Positions 7,454 through 33,537 of a stretch of 42,125 nt of DNA are shown here, one piece after another. Both the position numbers and the translations under genes were made by a program. The number at the start of each line of letters is the position of its first letter. Position 1 is the first letter of the stretch. This stretch comes from a virus. Lineage: Duplodnaviria > Heunggongvirae > Uroviricota > Caudoviricetes. The stretch spans positions 1 to 42,125 of the IMG/VR virus record IMGVR_UViG_2537561991_000019, one strand, 5' to 3'. The notes beneath the pieces are model-generated. The model was not told the DNA's origin. It searched no databases and worked only from the letters and a program-made list of their open reading frames with translations.

Positions 7454-10400
7454 TACCGATATGCTCCACTTAACCGACCACCATCACGGGCCTGCTGTTG
7501 CATAAAGTCCGCTGCCGCTTTTTTCCCAAGGTCATAAACCACCTTCAGGGCAGCCGGACCTATCTGCCCGTTCGTGCCATCGTTATTGATCTCGATGTTG
7601 TACTGCGGGGCAAACATCGCCATACCTGAACCACCAATATCCGCCACAACCCCCAGCTTACCGTCAGCACCACGACGCAGTGGCAGAATGGCTTCAGGTC
7701 CAGCTTCCCCCATCACACCCGCGCCTTTTGCAAAAGCAAAAAACGTCGGACGGTTAACCACCGTGCCACTGTAGCGACTCAAATCAGCAGACTGATAAAC
7801 ACCGCCATCCGCATTTGGTGTCACACTGGCAGCTGCTGCACTCCCCCAGCCAAACGCCGAACCAATCCCCTTCACTGCCTGCATCATGACCATCTGCGAC
7901 ATGATTTTTGCCAGATCAGAAAGGAGCGAGGCGGTAAAAGATCTGAAGTTCAGTTTTCCGGTGGTACAGAACGTCGCCAGTGCATTACCTGCACTGTTAA
8001 ATGCCGCTGTAAACATCTGCTCAGCGGTACCTGCTGCGTTATCCGCACTCTCTGTAAAATTCTGAAACGCCCGCATGGCACCGTTTTTCCAGTCTGCCTG
8101 CATCAGTTCCTGTTCCTGCCAGTAGCGTCTGTTTTCGTTCAGTTGCCGGTTAAGGCTGTCTGTCAGCATCTGCTCAGCATTCCGGTATTCATCTGTGCCG
8201 TATGTTCCTTTCTGTTTACTGTCACGCTCCAGTTGCTCCATCTGCTGCTGATATTTTTGCTGCAGGCTGAACTGTGTCTGGTACCGCTGACGCTGCTTAT
8301 CTCCCATTCCTGTTGTGGCGATATCCAGGTCATGTTGCTGACGCAGAGCCCGTTCCTCTTCCGCCAGCTGGCTGGCAAGCTGAATGGATTTTTTCTTCAG
8401 GTCATTCAGCGCCGTCTGCTTCTGCAGCTCCTGCTGTTTTGCATCCAGCAGCGTCAGTGCCTGAATCAGCTCATCCTTATGCGCCAGCACGCTTTTTTCA
8501 TCTGCTGTCAGCTTTTTACCCGCCAGGTCACTGATACGCTGCTGCAGGGCCAGAAGCTGCTTATGCGCCTCTGTCATTTTTTCCGTGGTCAGTCCCGCGG
8601 ACTGTCTGGCGGCGGCGATCTGCCCCTCCACCTGCGCCTGCTGCTGACTGTACTGCAACAGCAACCGGGTGGCTTCATCATTGCGGTTTTCAGATGTTTT
8701 TTTCTTAATGGCTTTCTCGTAACGTTCATTTTCACGTTGTATCGCCGCATCCCTGACAGCCTGATCGGCGTACTGCATGGCATTAATACGCGCAATTTCA
8801 CGCTGATGTCGTGCTGCTTCCGTTTCATTCATCCGGTTCAGTGCAGCATTTTCAGCATTACGGCGTTTCTGTTGCTCCTGATAATTCCGCTCTGCCTGCT
8901 CTTTTGCATCCTGCAAATCCTTCTGGCGTTTTTTCTCCTGAAGATCGTTAAGACGCTGCTGATCGTATTCAACCTGAGAAGATGATGCCGTCCAGGGGAG
9001 TCTTTTCGCCCGCGACACTTTCTCCTGTAAAGCGGCAATCTGTTCATCCAGCGAGTCTTCACGACCAATATTCATGGCCGCATCCCAGAAACGACTCCAT
9101 AAATCAGACAGATACTTCAGCGTACTGCCCAGCGCATTGAGGTTATTATCAATATCCGCAGTACGCCGACCGGTTTCCTCTGCCAGTGCAGACATGGCTA
9201 TCCGTGCCGCATCACTGGACCGCCCCTGATCCCCAAGGACGCGTATCTGCTCAAGCTGAGTGGCAGTAAGAAAATGCAGCTCATTGTCCAGAGCCTTCGC
9301 GGCATTTACAGGATCATCCTTCAGCCGCTTAAACTGATTTATGGTATCGCTGACCGACTGGCCAACCGATCGCTCCATCTTTGCGGCAGCTCTCGCCACC
9401 ATACCGATATCGTTTCCACGAAATGCACCACTCCCCACCACCTGAGCCAGCGCACCGGCTGCAGCATGTTGCGTGATACCATTCCCGGAAATAGCACGAC
9501 TGAGCGTCCACAGCTGCCCGGCAGTGACTCCGGCATAATGCCCCGTCAGTGACAGCTGGCGGTTAAATTCTTCCCCCTCCTTCTGACCGTCATACCAGGC
9601 TTTACCCAGACCATAGACGGCCGCGGCAATACCGCCAATAACCCCGCCCAGCATCATGCCTTTCGGTGACATCAATGTGTCTATCCACCCGGCACGGTTA
9701 GCCAGCGTTATTCCGGATCCCCTCAGCGCACCTAAATTTCCGCGGGCCAGTTCACCTATCAGAACGCCTATCTCCTGACGGGCCGCTGCACTTTTCAGAC
9801 CCAGCGAATGCGTGGCTTTTCCTGCCTGCTCCATTTTGCGGATATACACTTCTGCAGCACTGCTTACCCCCAGCTGGGCAGCCTTAGCACGAAGCAACTC
9901 AGAAGAAGAAAGATTCTGGCGGGTTGCCTGCTCTTTAAGCTGACGGATAAACGCCACTTTCTGTCGGGTAGCCTCTTCCTCAGCCTGTGTAAGAACACGG
10001 GTTTTCGCCGTAACCTCAGAAATCAGCGCCAGATAATCCTGCTGACCAATCCCGCCACTGTTTCTGGCCTGTCGGATCTGCTGCTGAATACGCTGTAATT
10101 CCTGCAGCCCCGCACTGGCCTGTTTCACACTGTCAATCTGACGATAAAACGCAGCAGCCGCTTTATCCTGAGCCTCCGCCAGAGCCATGGCCTGCGCCTG
10201 TTCCTCGCGCATTTTCTGGCTCAGCGCCTCCATGCGCTGGCGGGTTTTCTCCACCTCGCGGGCCATGCGTTCATGAGCCTGTGCGTTCTTCTCCACCGTC
10301 TGCGCATGGACGGATGCGGCTGTTGCAGCCGAAGAAGCCGCCTGCGTTGTCTGCCGGGCGGCCTGAGTCTGACGCTCCATAAAACGCTGCATACGGGCAG

Positions 10401-13706: not shown

Positions 13707-15665
13707 TTACGCCGTACATTTCACCAGACCGCGGTGATCAACTGGCGCGACACCGGCGTCAATACGCACTTTCGTTGTCACGCCATCCACACTGAAGCCC
13801 TCCATCTGATCAATATATGGCGTATCCACACCGTTGAGATAAGCCACTTCAATCGTATCGGAGCCTTTTGACGCAGCCAGGTAGAAGGTGGTCTGGCTGT
13901 TATCATCAAGACGAGGCTCTGCAATAACGGTCGCAAAATCTTTCACCGGGTTAATAATACCGGCGTTAATGTCAGCCCCCTTGACACTTGAGGAGCGAAT
14001 GACCTGGTTAGCAACAGACTCCATCGCCGTCGGTACCAGTACGAACGCAGGACGAATATTCAGATGACGCTCCCCCTCTTTCTGAACGCGCATCAACTGG
14101 CGGGCTTTATCCAGCGATGCCACGTCCATTGCAGCGCTCTCCAGTACGTTTGCATGTTTCGCTTTATCGAACAGACTTACATTATCTGTGGAGATTTTCG
14201 GGTTAGACGTCAGAATGGCATAAACCAGATCGGCAATAGTGGATTTCGCCGCACGGCCCAGCTTCATCGGGACATCGGTCAGCATATTCAGATCATCATT
14301 GATAATGGCCTGACGGGTGATACTGAACAGCTCGCCATAGGTCGCCAGTGCAATAGTGGCCTGTTTATCTCCGGTGGTGACGTATTTATATTCCGCCCCT
14401 TCACGCACCTGACGCAGAGCACTGAAGCCCCCCATACCCACACGATGGGCAATTTTAAAATCAGACAACTGACCTTTCCGCGTCCACTGTTCATAGGTTT
14501 CAGGGGCATCTTCCCAGCCCTGCAGAATGGCTTTGTTCGCAACATCCAGCAGAATATTACCGAAGTCAGACGTACTGTGTGTGAACGCCGCACCGACCAT
14601 CTGCATCGGGTTATAACTGGAAATCCCAATACCCCGTTCAGTCAGTGACATACGGGCATATTCACGCAGGGTCATCCCGTTGTAGACATTATCACGTTCG
14701 GTTTTTTCAAATCCGGCACGCGCCATCAGCGCCTGGCGAATCCCGTCCCCCACAAAATTACCGTTACCGGCATAAATATGAGCCGGGGTATTTTTATTGG
14801 ATGGCGTGGACTCGCGCCCCATCTCGTTCAACAGCTTTTCGCGGGCCTGCTCCAGCGAACATTCAGGATCGGCAAGACACTGAGCCTGCAGCGTCTGATA
14901 ACGCCCGCCAAACATGGCAAACAGATCATTAATACCGTTTACACGCGCTTTTTGCTCTGCCAGTACCTGCGCACGGATGCTGTTTTCATCCACCACGGGT
15001 GCTGCTGCCTGCACTGGCGTCCGGGAGGCTGCAGGTTCATCATCCTGTACGCGTGGAGCACTGTTGCGTGGCGGAGTAATCATGTTTCGAATGGATTCCG
15101 GCATCTTTTTAAATTCCTCTGTACGTTTTGACTGAATACATGCCATTGCCTTAACGGCTGGCGTCACCTGATCAGCAAATCCATGTGCCAGACATTCGGC
15201 ACCGGACATCCAGGTCTCATCCGCCAGCATGGCAGCAATTTCATCGGTGGTTTTCCCGGTTTTCTGTGCATAAGCGGGTAACAGAACCGCCTCAACCTTA
15301 TCGAGCAGGTCGGCATAGGTGCGCATGTCCTCCGCATCACCGCCCGTAAAGCCAAATGGTTTATGAATCATCATGAAGGTGTTTTCCGGCATAATGACCG
15401 GGTTTCCCACCATCGCAATGACCGACGCCATTGACGCCGCCACACCGTCGACATAAACGGTAATGGACGCACCATGTGTTTTCAGTGCATTAAAAATGGC
15501 GATGCCTTCAAAGACATCGCCACCCGGTGAATTGATATGGAGATTAATGTGGGTGATATCGCCCAGTGCATTCAGATCACTGATAAACTGCTTCGCTGTA
15601 ACACCCCAGAAACCAATCTCGTCATAAATATAAATATCCGCGTCACTCTGGTGACCAGCCTGCAT
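13707..15665 (-). CDS. Prohead protease (ClpP/S14-like) fused to major capsid protein
   Basis: N-terminal region has a ClpP-like serine protease signature (…INSPGGDVFEGIAIFNALK…MASVIAMVG…MMIHKP…); the C-terminal ~350 aa are capsid-like. Start set at the internal Met MQAGHQSDADIYIYDEIG just after the portal stop. Confidence 0.8.
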   Translation of the reverse strand: MQAGHQSDADIYIYDEIGFWGVTAKQFISDLNALGDITHINLHINSPGGDVFEGIAIFNALKTHGASITVYVDGVAASMASVIAMVGNPVIMPENTFMMIHKPFGFTGGDAEDMRTYADLLDKVEAVLLPAYAQKTGKTTDEIAAMLADETWMSGAECLAHGFADQVTPAVKAMACIQSKRTEEFKKMPESIRNMITPPRNSAPRVQDDEPAASRTPVQAAAPVVDENSIRAQVLAEQKARVNGINDLFAMFGGRYQTLQAQCLADPECSLEQAREKLLNEMGRESTPSNKNTPAHIYAGNGNFVGDGIRQALMARAGFEKTERDNVYNGMTLREYARMSLTERGIGISSYNPMQMVGAAFTHSTSDFGNILLDVANKAILQGWEDAPETYEQWTRKGQLSDFKIAHRVGMGGFSALRQVREGAEYKYVTTGDKQATIALATYGELFSITRQAIINDDLNMLTDVPMKLGRAAKSTIADLVYAILTSNPKISTDNVSLFDKAKHANVLESAAMDVASLDKARQLMRVQKEGERHLNIRPAFVLVPTAMESVANQVIRSSSVKGADINAGIINPVKDFATVIAEPRLDDNSQTTFYLAASKGSDTIEVAYLNGVDTPYIDQMEGFSVDGVTTKVRIDAGVAPVDHRGLVKCTA

Positions 15666-27489: not shown

Positions 27490-28139
27490 GCCGCCATCTC
27501 CCTGACAAGTTTTTCTGCCTGCTGGCGAACCTGCGCCAGAAACGCCTCACCACATGCCTCAAGTTCATCGCGCCCGATGTAGCTGATTGCCGGTCCCTTC
27601 CAGGTCTTGTCGAAAACAGCAATAGCACCAGCGAAGAAAGCGCCTGTCGGCACCTGCTTCTCGTCCTTCGGGATAAACCAGGCTGGCAGTTCAAAACCAA
27701 TACGCCCGCGAATAAAAGCAATATGGTCTGCATCTTCCGGCCACCACACTTCGCTGGTGGCAGCTTTGATCAGGAAAACATAGCGCCCGCCTTTATCACG
27801 CATAGCACTGGCATGTTTCATGATGTAACGCATGCCGGTGATGTATTGCCCCTCATGCTGACTGGCGCGGCTGTACGGGGGATTACCAAAGGCAGCACCT
27901 TTAAGCTCCGCAAGACGTTCTGACCAGTCATGCGCCAGCGCGTTGTCTTCCGCAGTGTAATAAGCGGCACATTTGGCGTTATCACCATCAGTGAACAGAT
28001 CCAGAACAAACGGGCCAAACAGGGTGTTAATTCCCCAGAAAATGTTGTCCGGCGTGCGCCACTGATCGCCCACTTCCTTCAGTTCATGGGCTGGTTTGTT
28101 CCGCAGTTCCACCAGCGCCTGGCAATATTTATTACTCAT
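27486..28139 (-). CDS. Phage Dam-family N6-adenine DNA methyltransferase
   Basis: Start at MSNKYCQALVEL (TAATG overlap with the upstream stop); NPPY motif (AFGNPPYS). Confidence 0.75.
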   Translation of the reverse strand: MSNKYCQALVELRNKPAHELKEVGDQWRTPDNIFWGINTLFGPFVLDLFTDGDNAKCAAYYTAEDNALAHDWSERLAELKGAAFGNPPYSRASQHEGQYITGMRYIMKHASAMRDKGGRYVFLIKAATSEVWWPEDADHIAFIRGRIGFELPAWFIPKDEKQVPTGAFFAGAIAVFDKTWKGPAISYIGRDELEACGEAFLAQVRQQAEKLVREMAA

Positions 28140-28633
28140 TAAGCCCCCACGTAATTCCCTGATAGATACCACTCTTCACCTGATGCAGCGCGCTTGCTGC
28201 TTTTCCGTAAGCACCGCTCACGACGCGCCAGAAAATTGTTTCGTTCTGGCTGGGAGTGGCTTTCACGGAATGCCGCCATCCACACGGTTGCAGCACGACG
28301 GTATAAGCCCCTTGACTCCAGTTCTTCAGCCTGGCGGGTCAGGCACAAAATCACCCGGGGATCGTTAGTGCCGACATAGAAATTGCGCACAGGTCTGGTT
28401 TCACGAACTGGTTGTGGTTCCGGCTCCTGCGCTCTCTCAGTCAGGCGTGGGAAATGTCTGCGTGTATCTCCTTCACAACGGTGAGCCACACGCCCACTCT
28501 GACGTAACTTGCTTGCAGACTGCAGAACGCGCTGCCGTGAGTAACCTGCAAAAGCATCCGCAATGTCTCCGGAAGTACACCCCGGATGGGCTTCAATGAA
28601 TTTCTGAACTTCATTCAAAAGACTCATGATCAC
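28139..28633 (-). CDS. Hypothetical protein, possibly with a PerC-like regulator C-terminal region
   Basis: 164 aa; ...GLYRRAATVWMAAF... recalls PerC-family regulators (weak); translationally coupled to flanking genes. Confidence 0.35.
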   Translation of the reverse strand: MIMSLLNEVQKFIEAHPGCTSGDIADAFAGYSRQRVLQSASKLRQSGRVAHRCEGDTRRHFPRLTERAQEPEPQPVRETRPVRNFYVGTNDPRVILCLTRQAEELESRGLYRRAATVWMAAFRESHSQPERNNFLARRERCLRKSSKRAASGEEWYLSGNYVGA

Positions 28634-29448
28634 CCCCTGAATCCTACCGGGATCTGGCTGTAGTCCACATTGTCGTAACTGGCTTTGAAGTACGGGTCCT
28701 CGCGTCTGGCTGCAGATACCGCAGGAACTTCCCAGGATTCTTCGAAATGACGATCCGGACCAAAGAACGTGACAGCCTGTTTCACAAATTGTGTGCCGCT
28801 GTTACCCATCGCAGATACCCAGCCCGCGTAGCGTTTCACACCTTCCAGCATGGTTTCGGGGTTTACCCCCTCATTCAAACGGGCTTTCCAGGCTTTGAAG
28901 GCTGCAGATTTTGAATTGCCACCAGCACGTTTGGGATATACCAGCCATGCCTGCTCAAACTCCGGAGAGTATTCCGGTCGGTTTGAACGAACTCGCACAG
29001 ACTCATCAGCAGATGCACCAACAGCTATTGGTTCATTGACTGGTTCTTTGACTGGTTCAAAAGAGTGACTGGTTCTGGGTGAATCTCCTGCACTACCCCC
29101 TGGTGCAACTCCTGCACTACCTGGTGAATTTGCTGCACCAGATAGTGAATTATTTGCACTACCCCCTAGTGAATCTCCTGCACCATCCAGATGAAGGAGA
29201 TAGATATTACTTGAGTTACCTTTTTCACCTTTCCGGGTGACTTTTTTTACCAGCCCGGACTCACAAAGGGCCGCAATATGATTCATCACAGAACGTTTGC
29301 TAATCTCGCACTGGTCAGCAATATGCTGGTAGCTGGGCCAGCACTCCCCCTGATCGCTGGCATTATCAGCCAGCTTGATCAGAACCAGTTTTCGCAATGG
29401 ATTTCCCACTCGAATTTTCATCGCTTTAACCATCAGCTCCATACTCAT
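28630..29448 (-). CDS. Replication initiator (lambda O-like) with internal origin iterons
   Basis: N-terminal HTH/winged-helix region; Gly/Ser/Ala-rich linker encoded by the repeat array; conserved C-terminal domain. Confidence 0.65.
   Translation of the reverse strand: MSMELMVKAMKIRVGNPLRKLVLIKLADNASDQGECWPSYQHIADQCEISKRSVMNHIAALCESGLVKKVTRKGEKGNSSNIYLLHLDGAGDSLGGSANNSLSGAANSPGSAGVAPGGSAGDSPRTSHSFEPVKEPVNEPIAVGASADESVRVRSNRPEYSPEFEQAWLVYPKRAGGNSKSAAFKAWKARLNEGVNPETMLEGVKRYAGWVSAMGNSGTQFVKQAVTFFGPDRHFEESWEVPAVSAARREDPYFKASYDNVDYSQIPVGFRG
29078..29188. repeat. Candidate replication-origin iterons: about five ~21-23 bp direct repeats inside the O-like gene
   Basis: Plus-strand units ggtgaatctcctgcactaccccc / tggtgcaactcctgcactacc / tggtgaatttgctgcaccag / atagtgaattatttgcactaccccc / tagtgaatctcctgcaccatcc, followed by AT-rich sequence. 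Confidence 0.55.
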
Positions 29449-29669
29449 GCAGCACCTCCGAGATGCTTCATGTTTTTTCCGGAGCGAAAGGCTATAAGCG
29501 GCATACTGACGCGGTAATTACGGCCCAGCGGTTCACAAACCACCTTCTGACATTCACGGTCAACCAGGCTAACACGTAGAACATGCCCTGCAGGCGTGGT
29601 GTACCACTGACCCGGACGAGGACAACGGAAAGTCTGATTGGTAAAACGTTTGAAAATATTCCGGATCAT
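29445..29669 (-). CDS. Small hypothetical protein
   Basis: 74-aa ORF with ATGA-type overlaps to both neighbours. Confidence 0.3.
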   Translation of the reverse strand: MIRNIFKRFTNQTFRCPRPGQWYTTPAGHVLRVSLVDRECQKVVCEPLGRNYRVSMPLIAFRSGKNMKHLGGAA

Positions 29670-30109
29670 TTGCGCCCCCTTACCTCTGAAGAGTTCAGCG
29701 ACGAATGAATAAGACGGGCAAGAAATGCCGCATCGTTAATTCGGTCATACAGACTTACAGCCAGCGGTGATTCAGCTTTTTCCAGCATGGGATAAAGCTG
29801 CTGCAACCAGACCTGATGAATTGATGAAATGTAGGAATAGAGAACGCTGGCGTTATGTGCAACGTCGCTCGGTACAGAGGGCTTTGAAAGCTGTTTCTCC
29901 ATCTGGTTAAAGGCATTGATGTATGCCTCTTTGAACTGGGCAGCACGTTTACCCGTGAAACCCATAGCAAGAAACGCAAAGCCATCGCGGGTTATTTGAT
30001 AGCAAGGTAGTTTGCGAGTACCGCCGTTGGGCTGGCGTACCAAAATTGATGTCTCCGCAAAATTGCGGGCACAAAACTCTGGAGAACAATCCAAAATGCG
30101 AATCTTTTT
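29666..30109 (-). pseudogene. 3' fragment of a Rha-domain regulatory gene split by the IS66 insertion
   Basis: ...YQITRDGFAFLAMGFTGKRAAQFKEAYINAFNQME... is the remembered Rha core; the reading frame rejoins in frame with the fragment at 32809-32931 when the IS and one copy of the target duplication are removed. Confidence 0.7.
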
Positions 30110-30162
30110 GTAACCGGCTCATTTAAACCGTCTGGTCTGTTTCCTCCGGCTCTACAAAAATA

Positions 30163-30840
30163 ATGTCCATCATTTTTAATGGACACTATCGTATGAAACA
30201 CCGGACCTGGATCACTGAAGCTTTACGTCTTCACTTTGAAGAACATTTACCCCGGGTTGTGGCCGGGCGTCGCCTGGGTGTACCAAAATCAACAGTTTGT
30301 AGTATGTTCGTGCGCTTTCGGAGAGCTGGCCTTTCGTGGCCTTTGCCCGCAGGCATGTCGGAGCAGGAACTTGATGCCTGCCTTTACGGACAATTTTCCA
30401 CGGTACCAGTCGTACGTCCTGAAAGCACCGTTATATCCGAAGCCCCCGTGGTAAAAAAACGTCCCCGGCGGCCCAACTTCCCTTATGAGTTTAAAATCGC
30501 CTTAGTGGAGCAGTCACTGCAGCCCGGAGCCTGTGTGGCGCAGATCGCCCGGGAAAACGGAATCAACGATAACCTGCTCTTCAACTGGCGCCATCAATAC
30601 CGGAAAGGTGGCCTGCTGCCTTCCGGAAAAAATATGCCGGCACTGCTTCCCGTGACGTTAACGCCGGAGCCGGATAATAAAATCCCGGCCCCCGCACAGG
30701 AACCAGAGCAGATAAATACACCGTCCGACAGTCTGTGTTGTGAGCTGGTTCTGCCGGCCGGAACTCTCAGGCTTAAAGGTAAACTGACGCCGGCGTTATT
30801 ACAGACACTTATCCGCGAAATAAAAGGGAGCAGCCACTGA
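30163..30840 (+). CDS. IS66-family accessory protein (orfA)
   Basis: First ORF of the element with an HTH-like segment; stop overlaps the orfB start. Confidence 0.65.
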   Translation: MSIIFNGHYRMKHRTWITEALRLHFEEHLPRVVAGRRLGVPKSTVCSMFVRFRRAGLSWPLPAGMSEQELDACLYGQFSTVPVVRPESTVISEAPVVKKRPRRPNFPYEFKIALVEQSLQPGACVAQIARENGINDNLLFNWRHQYRKGGLLPSGKNMPALLPVTLTPEPDNKIPAPAQEPEQINTPSDSLCCELVLPAGTLRLKGKLTPALLQTLIREIKGSSH

Positions 30841-31187
30841 TGATATCTCTCCCTGCAGGTTCGCGTATCTGGCTGGTTGCAGGTATCACCGATATGCGAA
30901 ATGGCTTTAACGGCCTGGCATCAAAAGTTCAGAACGTCCTGAAGGATGACCCGTTCTCCGGACACCTGTTCATCTTCCGCGGACGCCGGGGTGACCAGAT
31001 AAAAGTGTTGTGGGCTGACAGTGACGGACTGTGCCTCTTCACCAAACGCCTGGAGCGGGGCCGCTTCGTCTGGCCAGTCACCCGTGACGGCAAGGTGCAC
31101 CTTACTCCGGCTCAGTTATCCATGCTTCTTGAAGGTATCAACTGGAAGCACCCGAAACGAACGGAACGCGCTGGAATCCGCATATAA
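30840..31187 (+). CDS. IS66-family accessory protein (orfB)
   Basis: 115 aa, MISLPAGSRIWLVAGITDMRNGFNGLA..., characteristic IS66 Orf2. Confidence 0.8.
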   Translation: MISLPAGSRIWLVAGITDMRNGFNGLASKVQNVLKDDPFSGHLFIFRGRRGDQIKVLWADSDGLCLFTKRLERGRFVWPVTRDGKVHLTPAQLSMLLEGINWKHPKRTERAGIRI

Positions 31188-31206
31188 CCCGTTGTAAAGT
31201 GAGGAT

Positions 31207-32779
31207 ATGGACACCTCACTTGCTCATGAGAACGCCCGCCTGCGGGCACTGTTGCAGACGCAACAGGACACCATCCGCCAGATGGCTGAATACAACCGCC
31301 TGCTCTCACAGCGGGTGGCGGCTTATGCTTCCGAAATCAACCGGCTGAAGGCGCTGGTTGCGAAACTGCAACGTATGCAGTTCGGTAAAAGCTCAGAAAA
31401 ACTTCGTGCAAAAACCGAACGGCAGATACAGGAAGCACAGGAGCGAATCAGCGCACTTCAGGAAGAAATGGCGGAAACGCTGGGTGAGCAATATGACCCG
31501 GTACTGCCATCCGCCCTGCGCCAGTCTTCAGCCCGTAAACCGTTACCGGCCTCACTTCCCCGTGAAACCCGGGTTATCCGGCCGGAAGAGGAATGCTGTC
31601 CTGCCTGTGGTGGTGAACTCAGTTCTCTGGGATGTGATGTGTCAGAGCAACTGGAGCTTATCAGCAGCGCCTTTAAGGTTATCGAAACACAACGTCCGAA
31701 ACAGGCCTGTTGCCGGTGCGACCATATCGTGCAGGCACCAGTACCTTCAAAACCCATTGCACGCAGTTATGCCGGAGCGGGGCTTCTGGCCCATGTTGTC
31801 ACCGGGAAATATGCAGACCATCTGCCGTTATACCGCCAGTCAGAAATATACCGTCGTCAGGGAGTGGAGCTGAGCCGTGCCACACTGGGGCGCTGGACAG
31901 GTGCTGTTGCTGAACTGCTGGAGCCGCTGTATGACGTCCTGCGCCAGTATGTGCTGAATGCCCGGTAAAGTCCATGCTGATGATATCCCCGTCCCGGTCC
32001 AGGAGCCGGGCAGCGGTAAAACCCGGACAGCCCGGCTGTGGGTCTACGTCCGTGATGACCGTAACGCCGGTTCACAGATGCCCCCGGCGGTCTGGTTCGC
32101 GTACAGTCCGGACCGGAAAGGTATCCATCCACAAAATCACCTGGCCGGTTACAGCGGTGTGCTTCAGGCCGATGCTTACGGTGGTTACCGGGCGTTATAC
32201 GAATCCGGCAGAATAACGGAAGTCGCGTGTATGGCTCATGCCCGGAGAAAAATCCACGATGTGCATGCAAGAGCGCCCACCTACATCACCACGGAAGCCC
32301 TGCAGCGTATCGGTGAACTGTATGCCATCGAGGCAGAGGTCCGGGGCTGTTCAGCAGAACAGCGTCTGGCGGCAAGAAAAGCCAGAGCCGCGCCACTGAT
32401 GCAGTCACTGTATGACTGGATACAGCAACAGATGAAAACACTGTCGCGTCACTCAGATACGGCAAAAGCGTTCGCATACCTGCTGAAACAGTGGGATGCA
32501 CTGAACGTGTACTGCAGTAATGGCTGGGTGGAAATCGACAACAACATCGCAGAGAACGCCTTACGGGGAGTGGCCGTAGGCCGGAAAAACTGGATGTTCG
32601 CGGGTTCCGACAGCGGTGGTGAACATGCGGCGGTGTTGTACTCGCTGATCGGCACATGCCGTCTGAACAATGTGGAGCCAGAAAAGTGGCTGCGTTACGT
32701 CATTGAACATATCCAGGACTGGCCGGCAAACCGGGTACGCGATCTGTTGCCCTGGAAAGTTGATCTGAGCTCTCAGTAA
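31207..32779 (+). pseudogene. IS66-family transposase (orfC) interrupted by a frameshift near 31958-31968
   Basis: Two overlapping ORFs (253 aa and 273 aa) together have the length and features of one IS66 transposase (leucine-zipper-like N-terminus, CPACGGEL zinc-finger-like motif, catalytic core). Confidence 0.7.
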
Positions 32780-32808
32780 ATATCAATACGGTTCTGACGA
32801 GTCGCTTA

Positions 32809-33537
32809 CATCTTTTTCAGAACATCGTCATGACGTTTAGAGAAGAAGTCAGCAACAGCCAAAGAAGATGTAACAGCCTGACCATCAACGATGGCAATTT
32901 CAGGTTGAGAGAGGGTTGGGAGAGTAGTCATAGTGACAGCCCCGGTAGTCAGTTTTTTAGAAAACTCACCACATGGGACGCCAATCACAGAGGTGGTGAG
33001 ACGTACAGGGTTGGCGTTACCGGAGACTACCGAACCCGGCCCGACCGAAGTCGGCCCTGTACGCCCCACCATAATTTGGGCGTAGCAATGCTCATGACAC
33101 GAAAAAACCGCATGAGCGCGGTTATGCTCAGTAATCAATTTCAGGACGCCAATCCCGGCACCCGCTTTATAAGGTGCCTGAACAGTGTAACGTCCCGGAA
33201 TGGCAGAATCAATGTGCTGGTGGTCCTTCACACTCAACAAAATCACGCCTGAATTTCCACAAAGGACTAAAGCACTCATGCGGGTAGTCTTTGCGAAGAT
33301 AGATAACGCGCTGAGTTTCTGGCTCCCAACGAATAACATGGACATAAAGCCCTCTTCCATCACGAAACCAGCGGTTAAGTTCCTGCACAACTCGCCCCCC
33401 ACAGTCAGGTAAAGTTCTCTGTGGTTACTTACAGCCAGGTGATTTGGTAATCTGCATTCATGCCGTAACAACAGGTGTTCAGCGACACTGACCACCAGCT
33501 GTTGCGACAAACGGTTATTTGCCGTTAAACTGTTCAT
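32809..33537 (-). pseudogene. 5' portion of the IS-disrupted gene; its last 41 codons are the Rha-domain N-terminus
   Basis: MTTLPTLSQPEIAIVDGQAVTSSLAVADFFSKRHDDVLKK runs into the IS inverted repeat. The open frame extends upstream to an ATGA overlap with the preceding gene, so the true start is unclear. Confidence 0.5.

Follow-up and report, generated by a model that had tools for sequence, protein, structure and literature searches.

A candidate replication origin of iterons and a conserved box inside an HTH_36-type phage initiator gene

In phage lambda, the replication origin lies inside the gene of the initiator O, where we find, measuring as for the locus described below, four 18-bp dyad iterons spaced by 20/24/23 bp and followed by an A-rich region. 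Plasmid initiators of the RepA_N family of Firmicutes (pSK41 type) also have origin repeats inside their rep gene, and the iteron plasmids recruit host DnaB without a phage-type loader. In iteron plasmids such as RK2 (TrfA), pPS10 and pSC101 (RepA) and R6K (pi), a winged-helix Rep protein acts on phased direct repeats of ~20 bp, next to an unwinding element whose short repeats can be bound by Rep as single strands (PMC4081077, PMC4980987). In phages P22 and L, the gene of the origin-binding protein, gene 18, contains phage-specific repeats; the two proteins are reported to be distantly related to lambda O, their partner being the DnaB-type helicase gp12 (PMC8022706). Iterons inside initiator genes are already known from lambda, P22 and L (PMC8022706); what is new here is their occurrence in a different family, HTH_36, which we describe in a 42,125-nucleotide stretch of Caudoviricetes DNA (IMG/VR record IMGVR_UViG_2537561991_000019), called the window in the following. 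Comparison with relatives makes it probable, at about 0.7, that five repeats in this gene are iterons bound by the protein which the gene itself encodes and that, together with a conserved box beside them, they form the replication origin of the phage.

The Eru scheme, under which close relatives of this gene fall, classifies the region that serves replication in Stx phages by gene content only and mentions no iterons or origin; the same paper states that nothing is known about Eru-phage replication proteins (PMC8951638). For Pseudomonas MD8-like phages, repeats are mentioned in passing in the literature. In the literature searched we found no account of the origin of the present family, and the SfV genome paper (PMID 11889106) might mention repeats.

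A sequence-only reading of the window had claimed five imperfect direct repeats with a period of 21-23 bp inside the coding sequence of an O-like initiator. All five are found there, in an open reading frame (ORF) on the minus strand (28630-29448; the gene runs leftward), of which they occupy nucleotides 266-370 out of 819. Their period has to be corrected, the measured start-to-start spacing being 24/21/21/24 bp. On the gene strand the sites have the form GTGCA-N5-TTCAC and constitute five 15-bp quasi-palindromes of the format 5-N5-5 (plus-strand positions 29079-29183); on the plus strand this corresponds to five copies of the pattern GTGMAWnnnnTGCAC, starting at 29079, 29103, 29124, 29145 and 29169. 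With its flanks, an iteron forms a palindrome of ~19 bp, TAGTGCA-N5-TTCACTA, which is the size of a lambda iteron. The reading was also right that the repeats double as coding sequence for a Gly/Ser/Ala-rich linker: the array peptide (aa 89-124, GAGDSLGGSANNSLSGAANSPGSAGVAPGGSAGDSP) overlaps a part of the protein, aa 91-155, for which the AlphaFold2 (AF2) model has predicted local distance difference test scores (pLDDT) below 50. The features of the gene, all discussed below, are:

28630..29448, minus strand: replication initiator gene (272 aa), with an N-terminal winged-helix domain, a disordered linker and a helical C-terminal domain
29185..29448, minus strand: part coding for the winged-helix DNA-binding domain (aa 1-88), with the recognition helix at aa 51-64 and the wing at aa 67-85
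28984..29184, minus strand: part coding for the disordered inter-domain linker (aa 89-155), which contains the iterons and the box; pLDDT <50 for aa 91-155
28630..28983, minus strand: part coding for the C-terminal helical domain (aa ~156-272), the presumed helicase recruiter
29189..29228, no strand: AT-richest and least stable stretch next to the array (GC 0.33), encoding the wing of the DNA-binding domain
29169..29183, no strand: iteron 1 in gene order, gene strand GTGCAGGAGATTCAC
29145..29159, no strand: iteron 2, gene strand GTGCAAATAATTCAC
29124..29138, no strand: iteron 3, gene strand GTGCAGCAAATTCAC
29103..29117, no strand: iteron 4, gene strand GTGCAGGAGTTGCAC, a perfect 5-N5-5 palindrome
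29079..29093, no strand: iteron 5, gene strand GTGCAGGAGATTCAC, the same as iteron 1, adjoining the conserved box
29025..29078, no strand: conserved box, gene strand CCAGAACCAGTCACTCTTTTGAACCAGTCAAAGAACCAGTCAATGAACCAATAG, a candidate unwinding or helicase-entry element

In a search with Tandem Repeats Finder (TRF), the array was the top tandem repeat of the 42-kb window with a score of 77; of 100 dinucleotide-shuffled versions of the window, a single one reached this value. The second-ranked array was the neighbouring 12-bp repeat TGACTGGTTC at 29029-29059. A degenerate pattern of the iteron core, itself taken from these data, had 6 matches in the window where 0.37 were expected. A lone iteron-like 15-mer with one mismatch to the pattern, GTGCATTACCTGCAC, lies in the tail-gene region (7980-7994) and is probably due to chance.

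The protein carries the Pfam domain HTH_36 (PF13730) at aa 17-67 (E=1.8e-11, 44.1 bits against a cutoff of 25) and matches phrog_270, 'replication initiation protein', over its whole length (E=4.4e-88). Each half taken separately matches further PHROG replication families, which for aa 147-249 are the 'DnaD-like helicase loader' and 'primosomal protein' families. In the AF2 model, a winged helix spans aa 17-85, with helices at 17-28, 40-47 and 51-64 and a wing at 67-85 (pLDDT 76-90). The N-terminal domain also matched Pfam DnaD_N with 24.3 bits, under its cutoff of 27. Foldseek searches against the PDB yielded generic winged-helix folds only, none at E<=0.001; scattered among these were matches with E-values of 0.013-0.036 to 2v79 (DnaD-N), 4pql ('N-terminal domain of DNA binding protein') and 4pt7 ('structure of initiator'), the last two of which we take to be RepA_N plasmid initiators.

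Homology to lambda O was considered and rejected. The protein has no match to PF04492 at E<=0.01, whereas lambda O itself scores 5.7e-36, and BLASTP between the two gave short off-register matches only, the best with E=0.02. The label 'O-like' used by the sequence-only reading is therefore apt for the presumed function but not for the family. Closer relatives are plentiful. The gene shares ~98-99% identity with that of the 'replication protein' in SfV (orf39), mEp460, the cdtI phage, many Stx2c phages and Stx2a_WGPS2, and among 5426 complete E. coli genomes, 897 contain 80% of it or more; the NCBI pipeline gives the product as 'helix-turn-helix domain-containing protein'.

More diverged relatives were first collected by tblastn with the N-terminal 88 aa, which led to phages of Vibrio, Klebsiella, Salmonella, Aggregatibacter and others. 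The first six examined have two to four repeats with a period of 21-24 bp at the same position of the gene and in the same 5-N5-5 format, with differing sequences: GGGCAGGAGCTGCCC in Min27, TGCCATCTGATGGCA in the Klebsiella relative, TGCCAGCAGATAGCA in the Aggregatibacter relative, TGGCAGGAAATGGCA in Vibrio 381E49 and GTGACAAAATGTCAC in Vibrio D186. A wider scan, in which each GTDB species was represented by a single genome, yielded another 80 loci, distributed over Enterobacter, Pseudomonas, Rahnella, Proteus, Xenorhabdus, Aeromonas, Shewanella, Marinomonas, Aliivibrio, Avibacterium, a Cardiobacteriaceae genome and others. An anchored parser recovered an array followed by the box in 87 of the 89 genes analysed, which cover Enterobacterales as well as Pseudomonas, Vibrio and Pasteurellaceae; this gave 75 distinct arrays. 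As the parser accepts sites on their outer ten positions, the conservation of these is partly built in, and the raw sequences give the same picture. The array always begins right behind the DNA-binding domain and contains one to eight copies, most often five. Spacings of 21 (102 cases), 22 (40), 23 (43) and 24 bp (81) are the only ones to occur, and the last iteron is preceded by a 24-bp spacing in 65 of 73 arrays. The spacers of the 75 arrays (L003-L008 and L089-L168; 29094-29168 in the window) read yA-(G or C)n-Tr, with G-runs and C-runs both occurring, and it is the length of this homopolymer run, n=2-5, that sets the spacing of 21-24 bp.

The number of iterons varies in whole in-frame units: there are eight in cdtI, six in strain DEC5D and five to seven in IMG/VR relatives, and protein lengths of 242-302 aa imply ~1-10 copies. 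Natural deletion variants exist as well, one with a single iteron (P0042) and one without the last iteron and the whole box (P0040). Several of the proteins P0040, P0042, P0047-P0050 and P0076 are listed with both HTH_36 and RusA (PF05866) domains, which suggests N-terminal fusions to RusA. These variants probably stem from decayed prophages and might be used as natural loss-of-function controls.

In more distant HTH_36 initiators (SfII, YeP1, Pseudomonas phi2), repeat arrays of other kinds occupy the same place. SfII (L289, 1717-1880) and YeP1 (L290, 1718-1830) have five to six repeats of the 15-bp unit TCAAAATCTGACNCG and lack a box; the SfII protein ends in 24 residues that almost coincide with the C-terminal tail of the window protein, a further sign of mosaicism. 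The MD8-like Pseudomonas phage phi2 (L291, 1699-1900) has GCAGGAAATGCAC-type repeats, partly at 17-bp spacing, and a variant box (GAACCGTCA) with four copies of GAACCGTMA; the box may have host-clade variants.

The constraint on the iterons acts on the DNA and not on the peptide. Of the 75 arrays, 46 include one or more sites that are not in the same reading frame as the rest, by way of a compensated pair of 23- and 22-bp spacings; single-base changes in the spacer runs occur as such compensating pairs. Depending on the frame, the same 15-mer encodes unrelated peptides (e.g. GSAGDSP and VVQEIHQ), and in 22 arrays the asymmetric site is present in both orientations, as GTGCA..TTCAC and as its reverse complement GTGAA..TGCAC. 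The information profile of the iterons is palindromic and independent of codon position. Linker peptides differ wholly between lineages (GMPADST, PSDKMSP, GGAGAA), with the 5-N5-5 format and the 21/24-bp phasing kept throughout. When 58 distinct close relatives are compared, variation is seen at 6 of the 75 positions in the 15-bp cores as against 10 of the 31 in the spacers (Fisher p=0.005).

The iteron sequence further co-varies with the residues of the initiator that are predicted to read it. Differences between the relatives' proteins are concentrated in the recognition helix and wing (aa 49-84), and aa 1-48 are almost invariant. An arginine at position 56 is paired with GTGAC, GTGAT or GTGTC in 54 of 54 half-sites, and this in separate backgrounds: SKRSVMRH (Erwinia, Izhakiella), which differs from the window helix at N56R alone, and D[KR]RTAMRH (Vibrio, Aliivibrio). 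A third background with Arg56, SKRTAMRA in the E. coli phage mEp044, has GTGAC-type iterons too. Helices of the form S[KR]RSV[MI]xH with other residues at position 56 go with GTGCA or GTGAA sites, [ST]RTTAINH with GTGTA sites, and other recognition helices have quite different sites, as in Min27 and the Klebsiella relative. The N-terminal domain and its presumed iteron type also travel together while the C-terminus is exchanged. P0064 and P0072 have a Min27-type and a Klebsiella-type N-terminal domain, respectively, each with its own iteron type and each fused at the box to the C-terminal domain of the window protein. In relatives with the same N-terminal domain and array, other C-terminal domains are found and the gene lies directly upstream of P-like, DnaB-like or primase-helicase genes, which fits an origin-binding module.

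The box, which the sequence-only reading had passed over, follows directly downstream of the last iteron, with a 37-bp family consensus of CCAGAACCAGTCACTCTTTTGAACCAGTCAATGAACC; in the window, GAACCAGTCA is present in it three times in full and once in degenerate form. Over 81 diverged genes it is conserved at 1.3-2.0 bits at almost every position, including its four-fold degenerate third positions (2.0, 1.83, 1.32 and 1.43 bits), whereas conserved codons of the N-terminal domain show saturation at their third positions (~0.05-0.45 bits where four-fold degenerate, mean 0.60 over all such codons). In Shewanella and Parashewanella, translation passes through the last iteron and the first box copy in a different frame (PLVNLLHPEPVTLEPVNE versus SPRTSHSFEPV), with the DNA kept. 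The GC content of the box (the downstream 54 bp) is 0.43, compared to 0.50 for the gene, and in 69 of 75 arrays it is below that of the C-terminal part; in Pseudomonas and Aeromonas, which are GC-rich, it stays low, as that of the upstream flank does not. The box is A/C-rich on the gene strand and sits at the place of lambda's A-rich region. Its 12-bp unit, GAACCAGTCAAx (peptide EPVK or EPVN), varies in copy number among near-identical genes (L009-L088), so that proteins of 268, 272, 276 and 280 aa correspond to -1, 0, +1 and +2 units, independently of the number of iterons.

Tandem copies of the box occur 74 times in IMG/VR, and 73 times it is this N-terminal domain that precedes them, which rules out that the box is a free-standing site for a host factor elsewhere in phage genomes. 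In the sole exception (L240), it stands behind a distant HTH_36-like domain with iterons of its own; this weakens the notion of the box being recognised by the invariant aa 1-48. Compared by eye, the box showed no match to the IHF and DnaA consensus sequences and a partial one to that of Fis, from which we draw no claim. We infer that the box would be the opening or helicase-entry element of the origin. More tentatively, and with somewhat less than even odds, it could be a hitherto undescribed core origin element common to the members of a large superfamily of prophage origins in Gammaproteobacteria, regardless of iteron specificity or helicase module, that might double as a joint for module exchange; box and arrays would then define the initiator and origin of the 'non-lambdoid', HTH_36-type Stx phages (Eru5/6/8/11/13).

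That the array marks the likely replication origin, as the sequence-only reading had proposed, is supported by comparison in several respects, namely position, covariation, the data on frame and orientation, the mosaics and the gene neighbourhood. The proposed likeness to the lambda arrangement stands for the phased dyad iterons inside the initiator gene; it fails for the side on which the AT-rich DNA lies and for the helicase-loader gene, of which none is adjacent. The AT-rich DNA said to follow the repeats does exist, but it is modest and is found on the N-terminal (5') side, opposite to that in lambda. It occupies 29189-29228, among the least stable 1% of the 40-mers of the window, and its counterpart in GC-rich hosts is not AT-rich.

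A plausible course of initiation can be outlined. Each iteron would most likely be bound by a dimer of the N-terminal winged-helix domain and, since the sites are spaced by about two helical turns (21 or 24 bp), the bound proteins would come to lie on one face of the DNA and could form a complex resembling the lambda 'O-some'. This complex would strain and open a neighbouring segment of low stability, for which the strand-asymmetric box (29025-29078) is the candidate and the AT-rich stretch (29189-29228) the alternative. The exchangeable C-terminal domain might then bring in the replicative helicase, presumably host DnaB in this phage, as no phage gene for a loader or helicase is present.

Several points weigh against such an origin. 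In the literature searched we found no binding or origin-activity experiment on this family, and no origin is marked for SfV or mEp460 in their GenBank entries. A strongly AT-rich element is absent, the GC content being 0.43 in the box and 0.33-0.40 in the other, upstream flank of the array. There is no DnaA box nearby; the nearest matches to TTWTNCACA are at 15265 and 37669, and their number in the window is at chance level. No P, DnaC, DnaB or primase gene follows the initiator, the next gene being the PerC-like yfdN. For the C-terminal domain, which the AF2 model renders as helical with low confidence (pLDDT ~50-71), searches of Pfam at E<=10, NCBIfam and PDB sequences returned nothing meaningful. 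Lastly, an IS66-family element (~30017-32827) lies within the gene of the Rha/Ash antirepressor, with the cI/cro immunity region on one side and the initiator on the other, and may cut off the replication genes from early-right transcription; since a scan of 28000-30300 for sigma-70 promoters also found no promoter-like site, the origin may be silent in this prophage.

Of the other explanations, the one that fares best, though we consider it unlikely, takes the repeats for operators of transcriptional regulation, either by autoregulation or as a roadblock in their own gene, with the origin elsewhere or initiation proceeding in another mode. The noncommittal NCBI name of the product agrees with this, as do the missing helicase or loader gene, strong AT-rich element and DnaA box, and iteron-binding initiators often autoregulate as well. 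Operators would not lead one to expect that the same N-terminal domain and array are joined in relatives to varied C-termini followed by P-like, DnaB-like or primase-helicase genes, nor that the PHROG families of both protein halves are replication families; moreover, three to eight phased sites in a coding region are the known origin layout of lambda, P22 and L (PMC8022706).

Less likely still, the box, and perhaps also the array, might be kept mainly as a recombination joint at which modules for origin specificity and helicase recruitment are swapped. The box does lie exactly where the conserved N-terminal module gives way to the mosaic C-terminal domains, and the recombinants P0064 and P0072 are joined at it. 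It is, however, nearly invariant in Pseudomonas, Vibrio and Pasteurellaceae while the third positions of the adjacent N-terminal domain are saturated, which calls for direct selection on the box sequence, and its distance to the last iteron is fixed. Use as a joint would in any case be compatible with origin function. Finally, that the repeats are a slippage-prone tract of low complexity without DNA function, as their coding for a disordered, flexible Gly/Ser/Ala linker and their copy-number changes by whole in-frame units might suggest, is highly improbable and effectively refuted by identical 15-mers that occur in different frames and both orientations and encode unrelated peptides, beside which the internal dyad symmetry is a property of DNA, the lineage-specific linkers share one format and phasing, and the cores are more conserved than the spacers.

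In this prophage, the initiator is preceded by a 74-aa ORF and the Rha/Ash gene, and followed by the PerC-like yfdN, Dam, a LexA-like gene and RusA. The 74-aa ORF (29445-29669, minus strand; phrog_1153) overlaps the start codon of the initiator by 4 bp. It accompanies the initiator in SfV (orf38), mEp460, cdtI and DEC5D and is missing from relatives with a phage helicase or loader; its product is possibly an accessory replication protein. Most of yfdN (28155-28549) is absent from phage cdtI, where dam follows the initiator almost directly. In 28000-30300, terminator-like hairpins were at chance level, and Rfam returned for 28000-30200 only a 22-bit chance match to a microRNA model. The IS66 element replaces 92 bp of phage cdtI sequence. 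Its inverted repeats could not be defined, as the left one was not found and only a GCTTAC end at 32809 was recognised; its split transposase suggests a frameshifted copy. The ORFs of the element are:

30163-30840: HTH_Tnp_1
30840-31187: TnpB_IS66
31207-31968 and 31958-32779: DDE_Tnp_IS66 transposase, two overlapping ORFs

The initiator gene is very common, being found in E. coli genomes, SfV, mEp460, the cdt phage and Stx2c and Stx2a phages, and the present analysis supplies an initiator and a candidate origin for the 'Eru6' replication type of Stx phages. Initiator, sites and candidate origin core translate into testable constructs, such as ori plasmids, origin decoys and mutants that would alter how the prophage replicates and thereby the dose of toxin. 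The relatives make up a natural series, with single changes in the recognition helix accompanied by changes in the half-site (N56R: GTGCA to GTGAC), useful for the study of winged-helix specificity, and an in-frame array of variable copy number, which alters protein length, can confuse assembly and annotation. Beyond the known layout, the additions are modest: a conserved origin box and a natural code relating recognition helix and half-site.

Compared with the systems named at the outset, the locus resembles lambda in its layout. Both have several dyad iterons of ~19 bp inside the initiator's own gene, in its inter-domain region, spaced by about two helical turns (20/24/23 bp in lambda, 24/21/21/24 bp in the window); in both, binding of the origin falls to the N-terminal domain and recruitment of the helicase machinery to the C-terminal one, roles that are predicted for the window protein; and in both, an A/C-rich segment of lower GC content lies just downstream in gene direction. 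Unlike in lambda, that segment is a conserved box with a GC content of 0.43 and not strongly AT-rich, the AT-richest DNA being on the other side; the protein has no detectable sequence relationship to O (PF04492), the iteron sequence is unrelated and no P gene comes next. P22 and L share with the window the repeats inside the initiator gene and a specificity that differs between related phages; the window protein differs from theirs in being of the HTH_36 type and in having no phage helicase. The iterons of plasmids lie outside the rep gene, usually with DnaA boxes, of which there are none near the window array. RepA_N initiators and DnaD-N may resemble the window protein in their winged-helix N-terminal domain, to judge by weak fold matches, and differ from it in host range and C-terminal domains. 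The 'Eru6' Stx phages (reference Stx2a_WGPS2, AP012537) have the same gene, with 98.5% nucleotide identity to that of the window, in an identical layout of Rha plus HTH_36 genes (PMC8951638).

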